Below are positions 2,379 through 37,290 of a DNA stretch of 64,000 nt, in pieces. Position 1 is the stretch's first letter; each line of letters opens with the position of its first letter. The position numbers and the translations under genes were made by a program. Origin of the DNA: Acidimicrobiaceae bacterium (GTDB taxonomy: Bacteria; Actinomycetota; Acidimicrobiia; Acidimicrobiales; Aldehydirespiratoraceae); the NCBI GenBank assembly GCA_009842325.1, contig VYFQ01000003.1:113459-177458 (forward strand). Reading direction: 5' to 3'. The notes beneath the pieces were generated by a model. It worked only from the letters and a program-made list of their open reading frames with translations, was not told where the DNA came from and searched no databases.

Positions 2379-3185
2379 ATGGGAAAGCGGATCGTCATCA
2401 CGGGTAGCACCCGGGGGATCGGCAACGGGTTGGCCCGGGAGTTCCTCAAGCGGCGGTGCCGGGTGGCGATCAGCGGGCGGTCGGCCGATCAGGTCGAGGC
2501 GGTGGTTGCTGAGCTGGGCCAGTACTACGGAGAGTCGAGGGTGTGCGGCGCGGCCTGCGACATCACCGATCCCGGCCAGCTCCAGGCGCTGTGGGACGCT
2601 ACGGCCGAAGCCTTCGGCGGGGTCGACGTGTGGGTCAACAACGCGGGCGTCAGCATCGAGCGCCTACCGCTGTGGGAGCAGCGCGACCGCGACCTGGCCA
2701 CCCTGGTCGACACCAACCTGACCGGGGCGCTGCTGGCCAGCAAGACAGCCATCGCCAACATGCTTCAGCAGGGCCACGGGCAGATCTGGAACACCGAGGG
2801 CTTCGGGTCCGACGGGGCCACCCAGCCCGGGATGGCCGCCTACGGCTCCACCAAGCGGGCGGTGCGCTACCTCCAGAGGGCCCTGCGCAAGGACACCGCC
2901 GGCACGCGGGTGCAGGTGTGCACGGTGTCGCCCGGCATCGTGGTGACCGAGCTGCTCACCGGCGACTACGACATCACGTCGGAACAGTTCGAGAAGGCCA
3001 AGCGGATCTTCAACATCCTGGCCGACGACGTCCACACCGTCACCCCGTGGCTGGCCGACCACATGCTGGCCGCCGACAAGTCGGGGGCCAGGGTGGTTTG
3101 GCTGACCCGCCGCAAGGCGTTCGCCCGGTTCATGTCCGCCCCGTTCCGCACCCGCGACCTCTTCACCCACCTCGACACGGAGTGA
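2379..3185 (+). CDS. short-chain dehydrogenase/reductase (SDR)
   Basis: MGKRIVITGSTRGIGNGLA (TGxxxGIG), NNAG, YGSTK catalytic Tyr-Lys. GAGGGA RBS-like sequence before ATG 2379. The ORF track start at 2349 is also possible. Confidence 0.85.
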   Translation: MGKRIVITGSTRGIGNGLAREFLKRRCRVAISGRSADQVEAVVAELGQYYGESRVCGAACDITDPGQLQALWDATAEAFGGVDVWVNNAGVSIERLPLWEQRDRDLATLVDTNLTGALLASKTAIANMLQQGHGQIWNTEGFGSDGATQPGMAAYGSTKRAVRYLQRALRKDTAGTRVQVCTVSPGIVVTELLTGDYDITSEQFEKAKRIFNILADDVHTVTPWLADHMLAADKSGARVVWLTRRKAFARFMSAPFRTRDLFTHLDTE

Positions 3186-3192
3186 CCGGGAT

Positions 3193-5931
3193 CTAGCCGC
3201 CGGCGGTGACGGGGCCTCCACCCAGATAGCTGCGGACCACTGCGGGGTCGGTCTGGACCGCGGCAGGGGCGCCCTCGGCGATGACCTGGCCCACTTCCAG
3301 GGCGATCATGCGGTCGCAGACGGAGGCCAGCAGCGGCATGTCGTGCTCGATCACCACCAGGGTGATCCCGTAGGCCTCGCGGATCTGCACGATCACCTCG
3401 CCTAGGGCCTCGGTCTCAGCTTGGGCGATACCGGCCGACGGCTCGTCCATCAGCAGCAGCCGGGGCCGCAGCGCCACGTTGGCCGCCAGCTCGACGAGGC
3501 GCCGCGTGCCGGTGGACAGCAGGCCGACCGGCTGGTCGCCCACCGCGCCCAGCCCGAAGGCGGCCAAAGTGTCGTCGGCGCGGTCCTCGATGGCCCGCTC
3601 GGCCCGCGACCCGCCCAGCACGAAGCCACCGCCGGTCGCCGACCGGCAGGCCAGGAACACGATCTCGCGCGGGGTCATGGTGGGGAACAGCGAGGCGTTC
3701 TGGAACGAGCGCACCATTCCCCGCCGGCTGCGGGCCTCGGGCGACAACCGGGTGATGTCCTCTCCGTCGAAGACGACCGACCCGACCTGCGGGCGCAGAT
3801 AGCCGCTCACCAGCTCGAACACAGTGGTCTTGCCGGCGCCGTTGGGTCCGATCAGCCCGAGCGTCTCGCTCGCCTCAACGCTGAACGACACGTCGTCGAC
3901 CGCCTTCAGGTCGCCGAAGCGCCGTGACAGGCCCCGCACCTCGAGCACGGTGCCGCCTGCGCCGGCAGAGCTGCCGGCCACGGCCACCGGTGCTGCAACG
4001 GGAGAGGCCGCAGTATCGGGCCGGGGGGCCTCGGCGGTGTCCGGGTCGATGCCGTGTAACCGGGCTATCTGATCGATCAGGTTGCGCCGGGTGCTGTCCA
4101 GCAGGCCGTGGATGCCCCGGGGCTGCTCCAGGATCAGGATCAGCCACGCCGCGTTCAACCCGGCCAGCGCCGACAGCTCCAGATCGAAGAACTCGCGGAT
4201 GCCGATCAGGTAGGCGGCGCCCAGCAGCGGGCCGGTCAGCTCCGACAGCCCGCCGATGACCGCGATGGCCACCACGTTGATGCTGTCGCTGGGGGAGAAG
4301 ATGCTGCGGGTGACGAAGGTGTTGTTCATGGCCAGCACCACGCCGCCGGCGCCCGCCACGAACCCGGCGAAGGCGTAGGCGGTCACCAGCAGCCGCCACG
4401 GGGCAACCTGGAGCACCCGGGACGCAGCCTCGTTGTCGCGCACCGCAACCAGCGTGCGTCCGAACGACGACCGGCGCAGCGTGGCCGCCACCGCCAGCAC
4501 CACCACGAACACGGCCAGAGCCACGTAGTAGAAGCCCCGCGAGTTGGTCACCTCGACGCCGAGCACGCTCACCGGGCGCGACGAGAGGCCCGATCCGAAG
4601 GCCCAGTCCTGGCGGAGAAGCCAGCTGAACGTGGCCAGCGCGAAGGCCAGCGTGGCCACCGCCAGCAGCAGGCCCTGCATCCGCAGCGCCGGCAGCCCCA
4701 CCGCAGCCGACGCGGCCGCGCCGGTTACGCCGCCGCACAGCAGGCCCAGCGCCAGGCTGCCGGTGTCGACGGCCACCCGCACGCCCACCACCGCGCCGAT
4801 GGCCGCGAAGGCCACCTGCCCCAGCGACAGTTGCCCGGCGAGACCGGTCAGGAAGCTGACCGAGATCCCGATGGTGGCGAAGGCGATCACGGTGGACAGC
4901 AGGAAGGCGGACCGATTGGTGATCCACAGAGAGGCCAGGGCGGCCGCCACCGCCCCCGCGCCCCCCAGCACCCAGCCCAGGTGCTGGATGAGCCACACGC
5001 CCCGGTAGGCGTCGGGCAGGCGCCGACTCGGCGTCAGGCTGGCCCAGCGCTCGGCCTGGTCACGGCCCGCGCCCACCCGAAGGGCCACCCCAGCGAGGAT
5101 GATCAGGAACAGGGCCACCTCGAACCAGCCGGTGGAGTCGGGGTTGGAGGCCAGCACCTGCTCGACGATGCCGATGCCCAGGCCGGCGGCGAAAGCCACC
5201 GGGAAGTTGGCGAACCGGGCCAGGGCAGCCACCGCCAGGCCGCGCACGATGAAGTCGGGGCCGAGGGCGTCGGGCGTAACCGTCGACTGGTTGGGGAGTA
5301 TGAGCATGGCCGCGAAGGCCGACAGGGCGCCGGCCAGGGCCCACGACAGAGCGGCCATGTGCCGGGGATCGACCCCGGCCAGGGTGGCCGCGTCGGGGTT
5401 GGCGGCCGCGCCCCGCACCGCCAGCCCGTACTTGCTGCGCTGGAGGAACAGATACAGCCCGCCGACTACCACCGGCGACAGCCACAGCAGGGCGGTGGCC
5501 GACTGCGACACGAAGACGGTCAGCTCGAACTGGGGGAACCCCGGCGGCTGGGGGAAGCTCCCTCCGCCGAGGCCGCCCTTGGCGAACGACAGCGCCAGCA
5601 GCAGCAGCGCCTGGCCGGCACCGAGGGTGGCCACCATCGACAGCACCTTGGGGGCGCCGGCCAGCTTGCTGGCCAGCATGGCCTCGATGCCGGCCGCCAG
5701 CAGGGCGGCCGCGGCCAGCGCGCCGGCGAAGCCCAGCCAGTAGGGCACGCCGTAGTCGTTGACCACCACCGACATGGCCGACGCGGCCAGCAGGCCGGTG
5801 GCGCCGTGGGCGAAGTTGATGAAGCCGCTGGACCGGTAGGCCAGCACCAGGCCGATGCCCAGCAGCGCGTAGCCGATCCCGAAGATCGAGCCCAGCAGCA
5901 GCAGGGGGCCGGATACGTCGAAGCCGCCCAT
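3193..5931 (-). CDS. fused branched-chain-amino-acid-type ABC transporter: two permease domains (LivH-like + LivM-like) + ATPase (LivG-like)
   Basis: 912 aa. The N-terminal ~600 aa are hydrophobic with Liv permease-like segments (GFINFAHGA). The C-terminus has Walker [13 protein letters not shown], signature [12 protein letters not shown] and Walker [11 protein letters not shown]. Confidence 0.8.
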
Positions 5932-9754: not shown

Positions 9755-11055
9755 TGCTTGCCCCCTGCCGTGCCGAACTGGTCTCCCTCGGCGCCGAACA
9801 CCAGGTAGGAGGCGGCCTCCAGCCGGCCCCGCTCGGGCGGGAAGCCCTGCACCAGTGCCATCGACAGGTCGCGCAGGCCCCGGGAGACGGCCCCGGACAT
9901 TCCGGTGTTGCCCGTGCCGCAGGCCTTGAGCGCGTGCACGGCCACCTGGAAGCAGTTCTCGGCGATCTCGCCCTTGGCGATCCGCCAGTTGGCCACCACG
10001 TCGTCCTTGGGGATCAGCTCGGGATCGGCGGTCTCGAGCAGGATCTGGCGGCGCGTCCAGATGTAGGCGGCGTCCAGATGGGCCCGCATCTTCCCGATGA
10101 GCTGCTGGTGCAGGTCGCCGCCGCCGATGGGCTCGTCGGTGCCGTGGTAGGTGGTGGAGGTCAGATAGTCGAGGGCGAAGTCGTACACCGCCTGGGCGGC
10201 ACCGACGTACACCGACGACAGCGCCACCTGGTTGCCGACGAAGCTGCCCCGGCTCACCTGCGTCATCTTCACGAACGTTCCCGGCACGGTGAGCGCATTC
10301 TCATCGGGAACGAAGGCGTTCTCAAGCACGATGCCGTGGGTGGCGGTGGCCCGCATCCCGATGGCGTCCCACTTGGCTCGCTCGCTCACACCGGGCGTGT
10401 CGCGGGGGATCAGGAACATGGCCAGCGACTCGGCCGTCTCCCCGCCCGCGAGCTTGGCCGTGACCAGGTAGTCGTCGGCCACGCCGGTGGAGCAGCCGAA
10501 CGACTTGACCCCGTTGATCAGCCATCCGCCGTCGGTGGGGGAGGCCTCGGTGGTGATGGTTATGGCGGCGTGCTTAGACCGCACCGACTCGCTGGCGAAG
10601 TTGGCCACCCAGCGGCCGTGCTCGCCCATCCGCCGCAGCACCCGCTCGCCGAAGGCTCGGGCCAGCGGCACCTCGTCGGGGGCGAACAGCCCGGCCTCGA
10701 TGGCGGCCAGCGGGAGCAGGCCCCGGGACGAGCCGCTGCACTGGAAGTAGTAGGCCAGTGCGGTGGACGGGCAGGCGGTGGCCAGGGCGAAGGTGGCCGC
10801 CGACAGGTCTCGCAGCCCGCCGCCGAGGCCACCGTAGGCGACCGGCACGGTGATGCCCAGCAGGCCGGCGTCGGAGATGGTGCGGACGTGCTCGATGGGG
10901 AACTCGCCGGCGCGGTCGGCCTCCTCGGCCCGGGCGGCCAACGCTGGCAGCACCCGGTCGACCCGCAGAGCTATGGCGCGCTCGGCCTCGGTCATGTCCT
11001 CTACCAGGAGCTCGCCCGTTGCCCGTGCGGTGGGTTCAGACCCTTGCGACTCCAT
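9751..11055 (-). CDS. acyl-CoA dehydrogenase family protein
   Basis: Start MESQGSEPTARATGELLVEDMTEAERA at 11055. ACAD-like N-terminal helical, middle beta and C-terminal helical layout (EFPIEHVRTISDAGLLGITVPVAYGG; WLINGVKSFGCSTG). The ORF-track upstream extension is Arg-rich junk. Confidence 0.75.
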   Translation of the reverse strand: MESQGSEPTARATGELLVEDMTEAERAIALRVDRVLPALAARAEEADRAGEFPIEHVRTISDAGLLGITVPVAYGGLGGGLRDLSAATFALATACPSTALAYYFQCSGSSRGLLPLAAIEAGLFAPDEVPLARAFGERVLRRMGEHGRWVANFASESVRSKHAAITITTEASPTDGGWLINGVKSFGCSTGVADDYLVTAKLAGGETAESLAMFLIPRDTPGVSERAKWDAIGMRATATHGIVLENAFVPDENALTVPGTFVKMTQVSRGSFVGNQVALSSVYVGAAQAVYDFALDYLTSTTYHGTDEPIGGGDLHQQLIGKMRAHLDAAYIWTRRQILLETADPELIPKDDVVANWRIAKGEIAENCFQVAVHALKACGTGNTGMSGAVSRGLRDLSMALVQGFPPERGRLEAASYLVFGAEGDQFGTAGGKQ

Positions 11056-27800: not shown

Positions 27801-28340
27801 ATGCTCATGAGACGAATGATCCTCACCTGTGCCGTGGGGCTACTGGTCCTGGTGGGACTGGCGGCGTGCGCAGAGGATGACGTGGCCGGCGTGGGGGAGA
27901 CCGCGGTGGCGACTATGTGGGGCGTGGACGGCGCGGCGATGGGCACCGTCACCATGGAGCAGGGGCCCCACGGAGTGCTGATCTCAGCCGATGTCAGCGG
28001 CCTGACCGAAGGCGGCCACGGGTTCCACATCCACACTGTTGGTTCCTGCTCGCCGGACTTCTCCGCAGCCGGTGGACACTTTGCGCCCGAGGGTCGCGGC
28101 CACGGCTTCCTGTACGCCGACGGAGCCCACGCCGGCGACATTCCGAACATCTATGCCGCCGGCGACGGCACCGCCCGGGCCGACTTCTTCACCGATTGGG
28201 TGACTCTGGCCGCTCATGGCACGACATCGGTATTCGATGCCGACGGCTCGACGATCATCATTCACGCCAAGCCGGACACTTACGGCTCCGAGGCCGGCGC
28301 CGGCGACCGCGTAGCCTGCGGAGTGATCACCCGCAACTGA
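27801..28340 (+). CDS. sodC: Cu/Zn superoxide dismutase, lipoprotein
   Basis: AAGGAGG RBS. Lipobox GLAACAED. GFHIHTVGSC, GGHF, HAGDIPN, IIIHAKPD, GDRVACGVI. Confidence 0.9.
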   Translation: MLMRRMILTCAVGLLVLVGLAACAEDDVAGVGETAVATMWGVDGAAMGTVTMEQGPHGVLISADVSGLTEGGHGFHIHTVGSCSPDFSAAGGHFAPEGRGHGFLYADGAHAGDIPNIYAAGDGTARADFFTDWVTLAAHGTTSVFDADGSTIIIHAKPDTYGSEAGAGDRVACGVITRN

Positions 28341-31657: not shown

Positions 31658-32692
31658 GTGGGTCGGATGAGGTTCGGACTTCTGGCGCTTGCTGTCGTGG
31701 CGCTGCTGGCGGCGGGGTGTGGCGAGGCCGACGACGACGCCGGCGTGATCACTACCAGCGCGGTGAGCGCGGCGCTGGCCGACACGGTGGAGGTACCCGT
31801 CTATCAGGCGACCACCTCTGCCACCACGCTGCTCACGATGCCTGCCATGGGCGCTGATGCAGACCCCCAGCCGACGGGCGTGTCACCCACGGTGGTCGCC
31901 ACCGTCGCTCATGACCGCCAGCACTTCTTCATCAGCATTGCGCTACCGCCGGGCGCCCAGATCGCCGGTGGTGACGCGATCGAGTTCGAGATGTGGAGCG
32001 ACAGCGAGCGCCTGGTGATGGACACTCGCGACTATCAGCGGCTGCTGGATGCCGCTCCCGGCACCGAGTTGGGGCCACTAGAGCCAGGACTCTTCTCTGT
32101 CGACCTGGCCGCCATAGGGTCAAGCCACCCAGGGCTACTAGGTGCACTGGTAGGCGTCTCGCTCCCTTCTCTGAGGGATCTGGCCGAGAACCTTCCCGCA
32201 GCCCTGGACACCATCGAACAGATCTCGGAGGATCCCCCGATCTTCGTCGGCTCGACTACTGCTGCGAGCCTGATCCGCGCTCGGGGCGCCGATCTCGAAG
32301 TCGCGATGCGCTCCACTGTTGCAGGGATGGCGCTGACTTCGCCAGCGGACGTCGATGAACTGACCGAGCTGTTCACTGAGGTCTTCAGCACCGCGGCGGC
32401 AGAGGTCGTGATCGAGCTCGACGATCAGGGCTTGGTGAGCGTCCTGTCGACCCGAGAGGACATGTCGGGTCTCTTCACCGCTGTCTTGGAGGCGGAGAGT
32501 CTGGCCGCCGGTGCGACGGATCAGGAGATGCGAGAGGCGCAGCAAGCTCTCGAGGGTGCTGAGCTCATCCTTGAGACCCGCTCGGTGTACGAGACCGACG
32601 TCGAACTGGAGGTCCCGCTGCCCCCGGCAGCCACCGAGGACCGCACCGACGAATGGCGCGAGTTCCTGATCGACGCTGGCTTCGATAGCTGA
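31658..32692 (+). CDS. lipoprotein, hypothetical
   Basis: MRFGLLALAVVALLAAGCGEAD signal peptide + lipobox. No further family recognised. Confidence 0.6.
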   Translation: MGRMRFGLLALAVVALLAAGCGEADDDAGVITTSAVSAALADTVEVPVYQATTSATTLLTMPAMGADADPQPTGVSPTVVATVAHDRQHFFISIALPPGAQIAGGDAIEFEMWSDSERLVMDTRDYQRLLDAAPGTELGPLEPGLFSVDLAAIGSSHPGLLGALVGVSLPSLRDLAENLPAALDTIEQISEDPPIFVGSTTAASLIRARGADLEVAMRSTVAGMALTSPADVDELTELFTEVFSTAAAEVVIELDDQGLVSVLSTREDMSGLFTAVLEAESLAAGATDQEMREAQQALEGAELILETRSVYETDVELEVPLPPAATEDRTDEWREFLIDAGFDS

Positions 32693-32701
32693 GGGCTGGG
32701 G

Positions 32702-33250
32702 CTAGTCGGGGCGCCAGGTCTCGAGCTCTATGCCTAGGCCGTCGGCTATTCGGTTGGCGTAGGCGTAGTAGCCGACTACCTCGACGATGTCGAGGATGTC
32801 GCGGTCGGAGAACCCGGCCGATCGCAGCGCGTCGACATCGGCGTCCTCCATGGCGCCGGGCGTCTTGGTGAGCTTGACCACGAAGGCCAGCATCGCCGCC
32901 CGCTTGGGCGACAGCGGGGCCGTGGTCCAGTCCTGCTCGACTGCGGCGACCAGCTCGTCGTCGTTGATCAGCCGGCGCAGACCGCGCCGGTGGTGGACCA
33001 CTCAATAGTGGCAGTCGTTGGCGAGGCTCACGACCAGTGCGATCAGCTCGCGCTCGACCTTGCGCAGCGTGGCCGTGCCGGCCATGGCCGACTCGTACAG
33101 GGCCAGGTGGGCCGCCATGCCGCGGGGGTTCAGCGAGTGCACGGCCAGCACGTTGTCGACCCGGCCGTGCTTCGGGTCGACGACCCGCGGATGGATCTCG
33201 CCGAGCTCGCCGTCCCATGAGTCGTCGGGAATGATCTCGATGCGCGCCAT
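32702..33250 (-). CDS. AhpD/carboxymuconolactone-decarboxylase-family peroxidase-related protein with in-frame TGA (candidate selenocysteine; alternatively a pseudogene)
   Basis: ORFs 33002..33250 and 32702..33001 are contiguous and in one frame. The junction reads ...RELIALVVSLANDCHY-TGA-VVHH. The TGA therefore sits exactly where the second Cys of the family motif CxxCxxxH is expected. The combined length of 182 aa fits the family. Confidence 0.6.
32972..32990 (-). promoter_or_regulatory. candidate bacterial SECIS hairpin
   Basis: On the mRNA: UGA GUGGUCCACCA CCGGCGC GGUCU GCGCCGG. This is a 7-bp GC stem starting 11 nt after the UGA, with apical loop GGUCU at +22..+26 counted from the U of UGA. 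Confidence 0.5.
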
Positions 33251-33329
33251 AGACGTAGCGTCTCACACGAGGTCAATCAGCGGCTCAATATGGGCACCAG
33301 GCGTACCTACAGCCAGGCCTGAAAGGAAA

Positions 33330-33354
33330 GGGACCCCGTGAGTTCCGGGGTCCC
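33330..33354 (-). terminator. terminator-like hairpin in the 5' leader of the AhpD-like gene
   Basis: 9-bp stem GGGACCCCG/CGGGGTCCC with a 7-nt loop. On the minus strand it is followed by TTTCCTTTC. It lies about 80 nt upstream of start 33250, and no upstream minus-strand gene exists for it to terminate. Confidence 0.3.
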
Positions 33355-33474
33355 GAACACCTGGGGCATACGGTTGCATTCGGCCGAGGCTTACTAACCG
33401 GAGCCGTCAGGTGGCTTCGAGGGTAAGTGTTGTGGACGCTTCGCGCTGTTGTTGTTCAGAAATGGAACGATTGT

Positions 33475-33508: not shown

Positions 33509-34138
33509 GTGGACTTCAAGCAGCCAGTCGAAGCGGTGATTCCGGGCGCGCAGGGCAAGATCCTGGCCGTGCTGGTCGAGACGACAATGGAAATGAATCT
33601 GCGAACCGTCGCTCGGTTGTCGGGAGTGAGCGTCGCTCAGGCGTCACGGATCTTGCCGTCACTGGTCGCTCTCGGCCTTGTCACGCGACGCGAGGTGCCA
33701 CCGTCGGCCTTGTTCGGGTTCGTGCCCGACCATGTGGCGGCTCCGGCGATCAGTCTGCTGGCCCGTGCCCGCGAATCGGTGATCGACGAACTGCGACGGA
33801 CGGCCGCGGCGCTCGATCCGGCACCGGTGAGCGTCATTGTGTTTGGTTCGTTCGCACGCGGCGCTGCCGATGCCGACAGCGACATCGACGTGGTAGTGGT
33901 GCGGCCCGAGACTGTCGAGGAGGACGACGACGGGTGGCGCTGGGCGCTAGAGGAATGGCACAGCACGGCTGAGCGCCTCACCGGCAACCCGGTCGAGATG
34001 CTCGAGATTGCCGAGCACGAGATCGGAGAACGGCTTCGAGGCCGCGCCGTTGTATGGCGAGACGTCGTTCGCGACGGTGTCACCGTGTACGGGGCCACCA
34101 TCGAGCAGCTTCGCGGAACACCTGCGCGGTCGTCATAG
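33509..34138 (+). CDS. winged-HTH + minimal nucleotidyltransferase (MNT-like) fusion, second copy
   Basis: wHTH (NLRTVARLSGVSVAQASRILPSLVALGLVTRRE), then FGSFARGAADADSDIDVVVV (GS...DxD). Confidence 0.7.
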   Translation: MDFKQPVEAVIPGAQGKILAVLVETTMEMNLRTVARLSGVSVAQASRILPSLVALGLVTRREVPPSALFGFVPDHVAAPAISLLARARESVIDELRRTAAALDPAPVSVIVFGSFARGAADADSDIDVVVVRPETVEEDDDGWRWALEEWHSTAERLTGNPVEMLEIAEHEIGERLRGRAVVWRDVVRDGVTVYGATIEQLRGTPARSS

Positions 34139-35798: not shown

Positions 35799-36329
35799 GA
35801 TCGTCCTATTCCGAATAGCTATTGGGTTCGGGAGGGGCGGTTCGCGGCGGGGGAGTATCCGGGGGCGCTGGACCCGCGGGACGCGGCGGCCAAGGTGCGG
35901 GCGCTGATCGAGGCCGGCGTCGACTGCTTCATCGACTTGACGCAGCGGCGCGACGGGCTGGCCCCGTACGAGCAGGTCGCGCACGAGCAGGCGCGGGCTC
36001 TGGGCCGGTCGGTGCGGCGGGAGAGCCATCCGATCACCGACATGTCGGTGCCGCGCCGGGCTGCGGAGATGGCGGCCATCCTCGACGCCATCGACGACGC
36101 CCTCGATGAGGGTCGCACGGTGTATGTGCACTGCTGGGGCGGGATCGGCCGCACCGGAACGGTGGTCGGCTGCTGGCTGGTCCGCCACGGGCTCACCGGC
36201 CAGGGGGCCCTCGATCAGATCGCGGTGTGGTGGCAGCACGTCGAGAAGAGCTGGCTGCACACCGAGTCGCCCCAGACTCGCCACCAGCGGGCCTTCGTGC
36301 GGCACTGGGCCGAGCCCGGCCGCCGCTAG
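35778..36329 (+). CDS. Cys-based (dual-specificity / PTP-like) phosphatase
   Basis: Active-site loop [11 protein letters not shown] = C-x5-R-(S/T). 183 aa. Confidence 0.8.
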
Positions 36330-36357
36330 CCGGCGTCGCAGGACCGGGGCGGCGCCG

Positions 36358-37290
36358 GTGGGCGGGGTGAGCGCCAGGGACCGTTTCCGGGGCTGTCTGG
36401 TGGGGCTGGCGGCGGGGGACGCGCTGGGCACGACGCTGGAGTTCAGCCCGCCGGGCTCGTTCGACCCGATCGACGACATGGTCGGCGGTGGGCCGTTCGG
36501 GTTGCGGGCGGGCCAGTGGACCGACGACACGTCGATGGCGCTGTGTCTGGCCACCAGCCTGCTGGAGTCGGGCGAGTTCGACCCTGTGGACCAGATGGGG
36601 CGCTACCTGCGGTGGTTCAAGGAGGGGTACCTGTCGTCGACGGGGCGCTGCTTCGACATCGGCGGCACCACCCGCGAGGCCCTGGTGCGCTTCGAGCGGA
36701 CCGGCGAGCCGTACTCGGGGCCGACCGACCCGACGTCGGCGGGCAACGGCTCGCTGATGAGGCTGGCGCCGGTGCCGATGTTTTTCGCCGGCGAGGCCCG
36801 GGAGGCGATCGACCGCAGCGCGGACAGCTCCCGCACGACCCACGGCGCTGTCGAGGCGGTCGACGCCTGCCGCTACTTCGCGGGCCTGCTGGTGGGTGCG
36901 CTGCGAGGCGTCGACAAGGAGACGCTGCTGTCCGAGCGCTACAGCCCGGTCGACGGCCTGTGGGACGAGGCCCCGCTCGCCCCGAAGATCGCCGCCATCG
37001 CCGCCGGTTCGTTCAAGCACAAGCAGCCCCCCGAGATCCGCGGAACCGGCTACGTGGTGGACACCCTGGAGGCGGTCCTGTGGGCCTTCTTCCACACGGA
37101 AGACTTCAGACAGGGCGCCCTCAAGGTGGTCAACCTCGGGGACGATGCCGACACCACCGGCGCCATCTTCGGCCAGCTCGCCGGCGCACACTGCAGCGTC
37201 GAGTCCATCCCCGCCGAGTGGCGGCAGAGGCTAACGATGAGCACTGAGATCGTGTCAATGGCCGACAGCCTGCACGAGCGAGTCGCGTAG
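36358..37290 (+). CDS. ADP-ribosylglycohydrolase family protein
   Basis: [52 protein letters not shown]...IPAEW. The start is GTG 36358 or 36367. Same strand as the phosphatase, 28 nt downstream of it. Confidence 0.85.

Follow-up and report, generated by a model that had tools for sequence, protein, structure and literature searches.

An AhpD-like CxxU selenoprotein gene with a GGUCU-capped SECIS hairpin in sponge-associated Acidimicrobiia

The minus strand of the window (the whole 64-kb stretch of DNA analysed) carries a gene that is very probably an AhpD-like CxxU thiol/selenol oxidoreductase of the TIGR01926 clade, within the CMD superfamily, whose in-frame UGA is recoded to selenocysteine (Sec) by way of a hairpin. 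We regard it as a real and ordinary selenoprotein gene: the AhpD-like family is already known for Sec use, and this member is itself new and mis-annotated in public records. It raises no new question and overturns nothing, and adds one more well-supported case to the known picture of AhpD-like CxxU selenoproteins widespread in marine bacteria. The features are collected in Table 1.

Table 1. Coordinates of the gene, its active site and its hairpin within the window
Feature	Position	Strand	Basis
AhpD-like (TIGR01926 / CMD) selenoprotein gene, complete	32702..33250	minus	frame, Pfam, TIGR01926, PDB matches, codon-position diversity
UGA codon 83, Sec at second Cys of CxxC (C80-H-Y-U83)	33002..33004	minus	homologue alignment, TGA conservation
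Active-site segment, AhpD-type proton relay E68-x11-C80-x-Y82-U83-x3-H87	32990..33049	minus	alignment, relay spacing
Bacterial SECIS hairpin	32972..32990	minus	fold, synonymous constraint, bSECIS criteria
Hairpin 5' arm CCGGCGC	32990-32984	minus	fold
Apical loop GGUCU, +22..+26 from U of UGA	32983-32979	minus	fold
Hairpin 3' arm GCGCCGG	32978-32972	minus	fold

Reading frame, family and active site

The two open reading frames that the sequence-only reading had joined are indeed a single frame, running from an ATG at 33250 to a TAG at 32704-32702 (182 codons including Sec83) and interrupted exactly where that reading had placed the break, by one in-frame TGA only (33004-33002, codon 83, in the context VVSLANDCHY-TGA-VVHHRRGL). 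The product, of ~20 kDa, scores 144.3 bits against the peroxidase-related model TIGR01926 (cut-off 81.8), with residues 23-174 lying on model positions 21-173 of 178, and matches the Pfam CMD family PF02627 at 1.6e-13 (50.9 bits, cut-off 23); its solved homologues include PDB 2pfx (1.8e-31) and 3c1l (1e-30). With the AhpD core motif model TIGR00778 it reaches 42 bits against a cut-off of 27.8, but with TIGR00777, the model of the true AhpD that partners AhpC, it reaches only 19.2 bits against 191.95 and is not a member. Judged by these scores, the gene appears to have the core motif in common with true AhpD and nothing more, and no AhpC gene adjoins it within the 64-kb window.

The UGA falls on a catalytic position. 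Column 83 of a 10-sequence alignment is Cys in all nine Cys-containing homologues, and E68, C80, Y82, H86 and H87 are invariant; in the solved structures the CHY-U segment aligns with CFYC (2pfx) and CYYC (3c1l), in agreement with the earlier proposal that the TGA replaces the second Cys of the CxxC motif. The spacing of the proton relay is that of Mycobacterium tuberculosis AhpD (Glu118/Cys130/His132/Cys133/His137) and of Pseudomonas aeruginosa PA0269 (Glu36/Cys48/Tyr50/Cys51/His55), with which the protein has in common the all-helical CMD fold family and the relay Glu-x11-Cys-x-(His/Tyr)-Cys-x3-His. Its middle relay residue is Tyr, as in PA0269; it differs from both proteins in carrying Sec instead of the second Cys.

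Conservation of the codon was followed in 83 orthologous copies at 80 loci from sponge-associated Acidimicrobiia genomes that differ at the species level and whose records are titled Ca. Poriferisodalis, Ca. Aldehydirespirator, Ca. Spongiisocius and relatives; the genomes of these sponge-associated Acidimicrobiia frequently hold two or more AhpD-like copies. TGA stands at codon 83 in 82 of the 83 copies, over amino-acid identities of 77-96%, which speaks against a sequencing error, and it recurs in more distant metagenomic homologues (58% and 46% identity).

The hairpin downstream of the UGA

Beginning 11 nt past the UGA, the RNA can form a 7-bp stem closed by a 5-nt loop. This hairpin stands in the window as it had first been described; its outermost pair (C15-G33), however, is not conserved, being unpaired in 23 of 58 distinct orthologue sequences, and the conserved stem is the inner 6 bp. 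Compared with the bSECISearch consensus model as given in PMC13188914, the hairpin agrees with all four published criteria for bacterial SECIS elements. Its loop of 5 nt and upper stem of 7 bp (6 conserved) lie within the ranges of 3-9 nt and 4-16 bp; the G expected at loop position 1 or 2, usually followed by G or U, is present in G22 G23 U24 C25 U26, a loop that is invariant in 58/58 distinct sequences; the distance from UGA to apical loop is 18 nt (positions +4..+21; range 16-37 nt); and the free energy, which should be -7.5 kcal/mol or lower, is -16 kcal/mol for the centroid (hairpin plus two flanking pairs) and -17.8 kcal/mol for the 45-nt segment.

Stability is not what sets this element apart: the 61-nt fold has a z-score of -0.54, and a perfect 7-bp hairpin lies 9-26 nt past 1.6% of random positions in this window of 67% GC, as it does past 25 of its 1488 TGA triplets, so that the hairpin by itself is just mildly unusual. 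Adding the loop makes it singular, since neither strand of the 64-kb window holds another hairpin capped by GGTCT on a stem of 5 bp or more. Likewise, among the TGAs of the window, the one at 33004-33002 alone is flanked on either side by coding-type GC3 without being a mere gene-gene boundary. Rfam gave no gathering-level match anywhere in the window, and a scan of 32600-33400 at E<=10 returned seven weak matches, none of them to a SECIS family; this null result carries no information, bacterial SECIS elements being poorly covered by Rfam. Upstream of the gene, a terminator-like hairpin (33354-33330, minus strand) has no counterpart in any of the related loci examined.

Selection acts on the hairpin at the RNA level. 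Across 82 sequences and 70 degenerate columns, only codons 88, 90 and 91 of the run 88-91 (CGG CGC GGT CTG) show no synonymous change at all, and codon 89 hardly varies at synonymous sites (permutation p ~2e-4 for the synonymous freeze of the hairpin codons). Gly90 is GGT in 82/82 sequences; the rest of the gene uses GGC and GGT 588 and 102 times, respectively. Together with the published criteria, this freeze bears out the proposed fdhF-like SECIS hairpin. In two homologues the hairpin is kept and the Sec codon is replaced, by TGG in L086 and by TTA in L087; the latter also shows one compensatory change, G18U/C30A, which converts a G-C pair to U-A through two synonymous substitutions. In a further homologue (L089), the equivalent place is occupied by a hairpin whose stem differs and whose loop is GUC. 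Covariation is uninformative here because the stem is too conserved: in 58 distinct sequences with a nearly invariant stem, 92.9% of cells are paired, with 1 compensatory and 7 G-U changes; the count of pairs changed on both sides was matched by 284/500 shuffles, and the pair and type counts did not exceed those of the shuffles.

The comparison with the Escherichia coli fdhF SECIS (UGACACGGCCCAUCGGUUGCAGGUCUGCACC in NC_000913.3) was sound, the sequence first given for it being base-exact. Both elements are hairpins just 3' of the UGA and inside the coding region, with GGUC at +22..+25 and the heptamer GGUCUGC in common. The window hairpin differs in lacking the bulged U17, in having C and not A as the pre-loop base, which leaves a 5-nt loop closed by C-G, and in its different, G+C-rich stem with no extended lower helix.

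Selenium machinery and the decoding of the UGA

Sec insertion by this lineage is supported by selD. In at least seven related genomes, selD (TIGR00476, 327 bits) shares a chromosome or contig, matched by length, with the orthologous AhpD-like gene; among these is OY759762.1, whose AhpD-like copy is 94.5% identical to that of the window. In both selD loci that were read (L083 and L084), an in-frame TGA aligns to E. coli Cys17 (MARRLTEYSHGAG-TGA-ACK), a position with a known Sec/Cys polymorphism, and selD is itself Sec-encoding in these two loci. No actinobacterium sequenced by 2006 used selenouridine, so SelD in this phylum points to Sec. The expectation of a Sec machinery thus holds for its selD part. 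SelA, SelB and SelD COGs have been reported from a sponge Acidimicrobiia MAG, SelA and SelB COGs from Actinomarina, and SelA and SelB are reported to be enriched in sponge symbionts.

The window itself has no selD. When the window and 80 related 20-kb loci were searched by tblastn with the E. coli proteins SelA, SelB and SelD, only one SelD fragment came up (in L080); a 'SelB' match in L029 proved, on reading its sequence, to be a 626-aa TypA/BipA-type GTPase. ARAGORN detected no tRNA-Sec in the window and 81 related loci (L001-L080 and L083). In all, selA, selB and tRNA-Sec were absent from the window and ~1.6 Mb of related loci, which are partial stretches of genomes only, and the selD neighbourhoods of two genomes contain no adjoining selA, selB or selC.

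This absence of selA, selB and tRNA-Sec from the window and related loci would suit a decoding of the UGA outside the Sec system, through near-cognate read-through with Trp or Cys or a suppressor tRNA, with the hairpin as a mere read-through stimulator, and the Trp codon of L086, next to an intact hairpin, would suit it as well. We consider such decoding very improbable. L086 consists of one metagenomic contig of 1.9 kb, and codon 83 corresponds to the catalytic CxxC Cys; a Trp there would leave no redox chemistry. The GGUC at the offset of E. coli fdhF, the UGA at the polymorphic Cys17 position in both selD loci read, and the standing of AhpD-like proteins as a catalogued CxxU selenoprotein family all favour Sec.

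Slightly less probable still is genuine termination at the TGA, the gene being either a pseudogene or split in two, with an N-terminal polypeptide of 82 aa and a C-terminal one of 99 aa that is initiated on its own. NCBI and the gene callers annotate only C-terminal 'peroxidase-related enzyme' pieces of ~100 aa, and in the window a GTG (codon 84) directly follows the TGA; this GTG, however, is found in just 34/82 orthologues, so there is no conserved restart codon past the TGA. Such a split would also separate the CxxC/His active site into two pieces. Upstream of the TGA, the nucleotide diversity of codon positions 1/2/3 amounts to 0.11/0.07/0.30, against 0.137/0.104/0.325 on the downstream side, and this dominance of the third position on either side indicates that both halves are translated in the AhpD-like frame under purifying selection, with the TGA kept in many species. 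A genuinely decayed copy looks different: the AhpD-like copy in L073, near 19336, seems to have lost ~7 nt and is frameshifted.

Finally, a sequencing or assembly error, or a genome-wide reassignment of TGA to Trp or Gly (code 4 or 25), is already refuted and of negligible probability: independent long-read and short-read assemblies agree on the TGA; TGA ends 19 of the 35 predicted genes of the window and is the commonest stop there, which indicates the standard code; and, of the database entries that show W at codon 83 (P0003-P0006 and P0015), P0004 (L088) and P0015 (L089) have TGA in their DNA, so that their W stems from the code table of the caller. The W of P0001 (L086) comes from the real TGG.

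Proposed mechanism, known relatives and the lineage

We propose recoding to Sec by analogy with the E. coli system. When the ribosome arrives at UGA codon 83, the hairpin 11 nt downstream, with its G+C stem of 6-7 bp capped by GGUCU, would lead to the insertion of Sec in place of termination. By analogy with M. tuberculosis AhpD, C80-x-x-U83 would then form the redox centre inside a Glu/Cys/Tyr/Sec/His proton relay, and the product probably alternates between a selenol/thiol and a selenenylsulfide form, and would reduce a peroxiredoxin partner or else hydroperoxides directly.

AhpD-like selenoproteins with a CxxU motif (COG2128 / TIGR01926) were catalogued from metagenomes of the Sargasso Sea (2005) and GOS (2008), and a 2026 review of the prokaryotic selenoproteome lists them, in line with the earlier remark that bacterial and metagenomic surveys had reported them. 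The window gene shows no essential difference from this family, with which it has in common TIGR01926, a CxxU with Sec second, marine origin and a bacterial SECIS immediately downstream; what characterizes the present copies is that they come from sponge-associated Acidimicrobiia, are often multi-copy and are recorded as fragments of ~100 aa. NF041238 (AhpD_rel_CFYUT (seleno)protein, the 'hypothetical protein 1' of the Sargasso Sea study) is also an AhpD-related CxxU selenoprotein, but the window protein matches only the C-terminal part of this 357-position model, at 44 bits against a cut-off of 175, and is not a member. The weight first placed on Sec use in a high-GC, actinobacterium-like genome was overstated, Actinobacteria having already been counted in 2006 among three selenoprotein-rich phyla. 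The practical consequence lies in annotation: in dozens of public Acidimicrobiia genomes the gene is either overlooked or entered as a 'peroxidase-related enzyme' fragment of ~100 aa, and inventories of sponge symbionts consequently undercount redox enzymes and selenium dependence.

The GGUCU loop recurs in a second gene. Within 3.1 Mb of related loci, counted on both strands, there are 89 GGUCU-capped hairpins; 69 come after the AhpD-like TGA, at +22, and five come after the TGA of a Prx-like gene with a WAxxUGC motif, at +24, on the stem CCUGCC/GGCAGG. This Prx-like gene is unrelated to the AhpD-like one and has the same loop on another stem within the same lineage. GGUCU hairpins with a TGA at +29 (stem TCACG; L056 and L067) were dismissed, their frames being Arg-rich and non-coding-looking, and three with the stem CGCCG have no conserved TGA.

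It is possible, and we advance it only tentatively, that sponge-associated Acidimicrobiia (Poriferisodalaceae, Aldehydirespiratoraceae and relatives) have an expanded selenoproteome that we did not find described in annotated records or the literature, made up of multi-copy AhpD-like CxxU genes, WAxxUGC and UxxC Prx-like genes and a Sec-containing SelD. At least two of these families would use one lineage-typical SECIS, a short G+C stem with GGUCU ~20 nt past the UGA, and the AhpD-like and Prx-like proteins might form a Sec-Sec peroxide-reducing pair as part of an adaptation to life in the sponge. With GGUCU at the fdhF offset and its recurrence on another stem in a second gene, the hairpin offers a tidy example for better models of bacterial SECIS elements.

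Reading frame and active site

The AhpD-like gene is one reading frame in which codon 83, at 33004-33002, is TGA; the translation around it reads ...ERELIALVVSLANDCHY-TGA-VVHHRRGLRRL.... The sequence-only reading had described this minus-strand frame, had placed the TGA on the second Cys of a CxxC motif and had pointed to a 7-bp GC stem with a GGUCU loop eleven nt past the UGA; the ORF reading, the homologue alignments and the fold bear it out on all of these, and the E. coli fdhF SECIS that it gave is exact when read from NC_000913.3. With positions counted from the U of UGA, GGUC stands at +22..+25 in fdhF and likewise in the AhpD-like gene.

Translated with Cys for the TGA, the protein matches Pfam CMD (PF02627, 1.6e-13), the AhpD core-domain model TIGR00778 and NCBIfam TIGR01926 'peroxidase-related enzyme' (144.3 bits vs a cut-off of 81.8); it reaches neither the true AhpD model TIGR00777 (19 bits vs 192) nor NF041238, the model of the CFYUT selenoproteins (44 bits vs 175). 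Solved structures of the clade (2pfx, 3c1l, 2oyo, 6k40 and 2prr) are matched at 1e-31 to 1e-22, and in the two alignments displayed, those of 2pfx and 3c1l, the CxxC lies opposite CHY-U. Column 83 is Cys in 9/9 Cys-containing homologues (40-57% identity), and E68, C80, Y82, H86 and H87 are invariant across the alignment with them. The spacing E68-x11-C80-x-Y82-U83-x3-H87, in which U83 is the residue at the TGA, equals that of the AhpD proton relay, formed by Glu118/Cys130/His132/Cys133/His137 in M. tuberculosis AhpD and by Glu36/Cys48/Tyr50/Cys51/His55 in PA0269 (PMC3141380). Based on this alignment and spacing, the TGA therefore occupies the position of a catalytic redox cysteine.

Positions of the AhpD-like gene, its neighbours and other TGA-containing genes (window coordinates unless a related locus, L, is named)
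Feature	Position	Strand	Remark
AhpD-like ORF	ATG 33250 to TAG 32704-32702	-	Single TGA interruption
SECIS-type hairpin CCGGCGC-GGUCU-GCGCCGG	32990-32972	-	7-bp stem, 5-nt loop, 11 nt 3' of UGA
Terminator-like hairpin GGGACCCCGGAACTCACGGGGTCCC, then TTTCCTTTCA	33330-33354	-	~80 nt before the AhpD-like ATG
Downstream neighbour	31658-32692	+	Converges on the AhpD-like gene; no Pfam match
Upstream neighbour	33509-34138	+	Diverges; HTH and nucleotidyltransferase domains
Cu/Zn superoxide dismutase gene	27801-28340	+	In 21/80 loci a homologue is <=10 kb from the AhpD-like gene
selD	L083:9926-10960, TGA at 9965 (L084: TGA at 9962)	+ (L083)	TGA aligned to Cys17 of E. coli SelD
AhpC/TSA-redoxin gene (WAxxUGC Prx-like), ~390 aa	L024:17074, L027:15808, L044:18670, L046:7164, L049:14474	-	TGA in KVVLFTWSSW-TGA-GCRISLPVWQ
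SLH-domain and redoxin/thioredoxin-fold gene	L014:13833, L023:12516, L031:9093, L050:14675	+	TGA in FWFWAEW-TGA-PTC(K/R)GHAPEV

Conservation of the TGA and of the hairpin

With one genome scanned for each GTDB species, 80 orthologous loci were obtained, all from Acidimicrobiia MAGs and many on closed chromosomes. Their records are titled Ca. Poriferisodalis, Ca. Aldehydirespirator, Ca. Spongiisocius or as allied groups; families of these Acidimicrobiia have been described as sponge symbionts (PMC11706023). Protein identity across the loci is 77-96%, and several genomes carry two or three copies (e.g. L053 at 6245 and 10247, L061 at 2707 and 10247, and L057/L060). The TGA is under selection and stands at the aligned codon in 82 of the 83 copies; the sole exception, at about 19336 (+) of L073, is a decayed paralogue, frameshifted by an apparent ~7-nt deletion around the codon. 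The database entry P0012 (112 aa, on NZ_OZ242342.1) is also a decayed paralogue, in which an internal deletion joins the N- and C-terminal parts. More distant metagenomic homologues (58% and 46% identity) have the TGA too, the 'W' in their database translations being introduced by the code table used in gene calling. Two full-length homologues keep the hairpin and have at the Sec codon a triplet a single base away from TGA, namely TGG (Trp) in L086:449-1006 (68% identity) and TTA (Leu) in L087:3001-3549 (63%); recent loss of Sec and sequence errors are among the possible causes.

Taken alone, the hairpin is unremarkable for DNA of 67% G+C: a perfect 7-bp hairpin starts 9-26 nt downstream of 1.6% of all window positions and of 25 of the window's 1488 TGA triplets, and the 61-nt fold around the hairpin has z = -0.54. 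What sets the site apart is that the window, both strands included, has no second GGTCT-capped hairpin with 5 or more stem pairs, and that the TGA here is, ordinary gene boundaries apart, the window's only one with coding-type composition on both sides. The bSECIS model (PMC13188914) asks for a stem of 4-16 bp that carries a loop of 3-9 nt, for G at the first two positions of this loop, for a UGA spacing of 16-37 nt and an MFE <= -7.5 kcal/mol; the AhpD-like hairpin passes on all four counts, with a UGA-loop spacing of 18 nt and an MFE of about -16 kcal/mol.

Synonymous variation shows the hairpin to be under selection as RNA. Well-conserved codon columns with four- or six-fold degeneracy number 70, and their synonymous entropy has a median of 1.03 bits. 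It is zero in just three of them, codons 88 (CGG), 90 (GGT) and 91 (CTG), with codon 89 at 0.10, and a four-column run this low arose in 2e-4 of permutations. Codons 88-91 make up the hairpin's 5' arm and loop. Gly90 is GGT in 82/82 sequences, although in the rest of the gene GGC is the commoner of the two, with 588 against 102. Because the outermost pair (C15-G33) is often broken, the conserved stem is 6 bp; C30 in the 3' arm is U, giving a G-U pair, in seven distinct sequences. Covariation is weak in this nearly invariant stem, with pair counts within those of shuffles and one compensatory change (G18-C30 to U-A in L087, by two synonymous substitutions). In L089, a 46%-identical homologue, this offset is occupied by a hairpin with a GUC loop and another stem sequence, and the unrelated WAxxUGC Prx-like gene of the lineage carries the AhpD-like loop on a different stem (CCUGCC-GGUCU-GGCAGG at +24); both lend support to the predicted AhpD-like element. 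Across 3.1 Mb of related loci, both strands included, 74 of the 89 GGUCU-capped hairpins follow the in-frame TGA of the AhpD-like or the WAxxUGC Prx-like gene.

Selenocysteine machinery and further TGA-containing genes

In the window there is no tRNA gene and no Rfam gathering-level match, and tblastn with SelA, SelB and SelD of E. coli gave nothing; tRNA-Sec, selA and selB were not found in the 80 related loci. An apparent SelB match in L029 reads as a TypA/BipA-type GTPase from its sequence. L080, however short, contains a selD fragment, which matches E. coli SelD at 42% identity (1e-45) and is separated from the AhpD-like gene by about 9.5 kb. With this fragment as query, SelD proteins were found on contigs matched by length to seven AhpD-like-bearing chromosomes or contigs (3941130, 4097848, 4634121, 3742418, 1628071, 359537 and 3913199 bp). 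OY759762.1 carries an AhpD-like copy with 94.5% identity to that of the window and, about 60 kb from this copy, selD; such a spacing would place selD just outside a 64-kb window. The protein passes selD equivalog models (TIGR00476, 327 bits vs 125).

In L083 and L084, selD loci of related genomes, the true start of the gene is MARRLTEYSHGAG-TGA-ACKIAPGDL...; both annotated SelD proteins (305-320 aa) are N-terminally truncated, their calls beginning past the TGA. This TGA is followed by its own 8-bp hairpin, AGAUCGCC...GGCGAUCU, from +11. The selD of these Acidimicrobiia is thus itself a predicted selenoprotein gene, and a Sec-containing SelD only makes sense where UGA is decoded as Sec. Actinobacteria were counted among three selenoprotein-rich phyla, with no selenouridine use in those sequenced by 2006 (PMC1794560). 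MAGs of sponge symbionts show enrichment of the SelA and SelB COGs, with two SelA, one SelB and one SelD in Acidimicrobiia bin76 (PMC5649159, Table S4), and all genomes of Actinomarina (class Acidimicrobiia) have selA, selB, selC and selD, about half with Sec-SelD (bioRxiv 10.64898/2026.04.03.716425).

Two Prx-like TGA genes, the WAxxUGC gene among them, lie 4-9 kb from the AhpD-like gene in nine loci. The TGA of the WAxxUGC gene falls on a redox Cys, and its protein scores 264 bits against NF041054, just below the cut-off of 300. The SLH-redoxin gene, which has a UxxC motif and a short GGGG...CCCC hairpin downstream of its TGA, likely encodes a further selenoprotein. L083 also carries, 5-7 kb from selD (OY759762.1), a rhodanese gene (2476-3291, -) and a second CMD-family gene (4545-5123, +, 192 aa), the latter flanked on both sides by genes for luciferase-like monooxygenases.

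Alternatives, proposed mechanism and gene neighbourhood

Read-through of the UGA without Sec is very improbable, given that the codon falls on a catalytic residue, and given the Sec-SelD of the lineage and the SECIS features. The chance is slimmer still that the TGA is a true stop, in a pseudogene or a split gene: it is conserved, and purifying selection acts on both halves. Over 82 distinct sequences, diversity at codon positions 1/2/3 amounts to 0.11/0.07/0.30 in the half that precedes the TGA and to 0.14/0.10/0.33 in the half that follows, and therefore both halves evolve as coding sequence in one frame; nor is there a conserved restart codon, since GTG directly follows the TGA in only 34/82. 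Least credible are an alternative genetic code and the sequencing error that the sequence-only reading would have sought by resequencing, both refuted by the TGA in 82/83 copies and by TGA being the window's commonest stop (19/35 genes), as under the standard code.

We strongly favor selenocysteine insertion at UGA83. By analogy with the E. coli system, SelB with Sec-tRNA(Sec) would bind the GGUCU-capped hairpin as the ribosome meets UGA83, and selenocysteine would be inserted there. If the chemistry resembles that of M. tuberculosis AhpD, C80/U83 would alternate between reduced and selenenylsulfide forms, with E68, Y82 and H87 acting as a proton relay, and a peroxiredoxin partner or hydroperoxides would be the putative targets of reduction.

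AhpD-like selenoproteins do appear in bacterial and metagenomic surveys, as the sequence-only reading stated: 'AhpD-like protein' (COG2128, CxxU, with Sec in place of the second Cys) was a new family from the Sargasso Sea in 2005 (27 sequences; PMC1088965) and ranked fourth in abundance among the prokaryotic selenoprotein families of GOS (299 sequences; PMC2398784), and a 2026 review explicitly includes 'AhpD-like protein, TIGR01926, CxxU' (PMC13188914). Catalogues also include the WAxxUGC Prx-like family and Sec-SelD (PMC2398784 among the sources). Novelty is limited to these genes in sponge-associated Acidimicrobiia, the family being already known. For their AhpD-like genes, public databases hold only ~100-aa fragments or nothing; selenium goes unmentioned in a comparative-genomics paper on sponge Actinobacteriota (PMC11706023), as does the lineage's shared GGUCU SECIS loop in the literature examined here.

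The AhpD-like gene is a stand-alone unit outside any operon, and synteny is seen only among the closest relatives. The terminator-like hairpin has no same-strand gene adjoining upstream and was not found in any related locus. The product of the downstream neighbour presumably bears a lipoprotein signal. Two flavin amine oxidases, a glyoxalase-family protein and the Cu/Zn superoxide dismutase, with what we take to be a lipoprotein-type signal peptide, are encoded nearby. Flavin amine oxidases and Cu/Zn superoxide dismutase make hydrogen peroxide, and such peroxide-producing neighbours loosely fit an antioxidant role. A homologue of the window's ADP-ribosylglycohydrolase (36106-37290) is likewise no more than 10 kb away from the AhpD-like gene in related loci.
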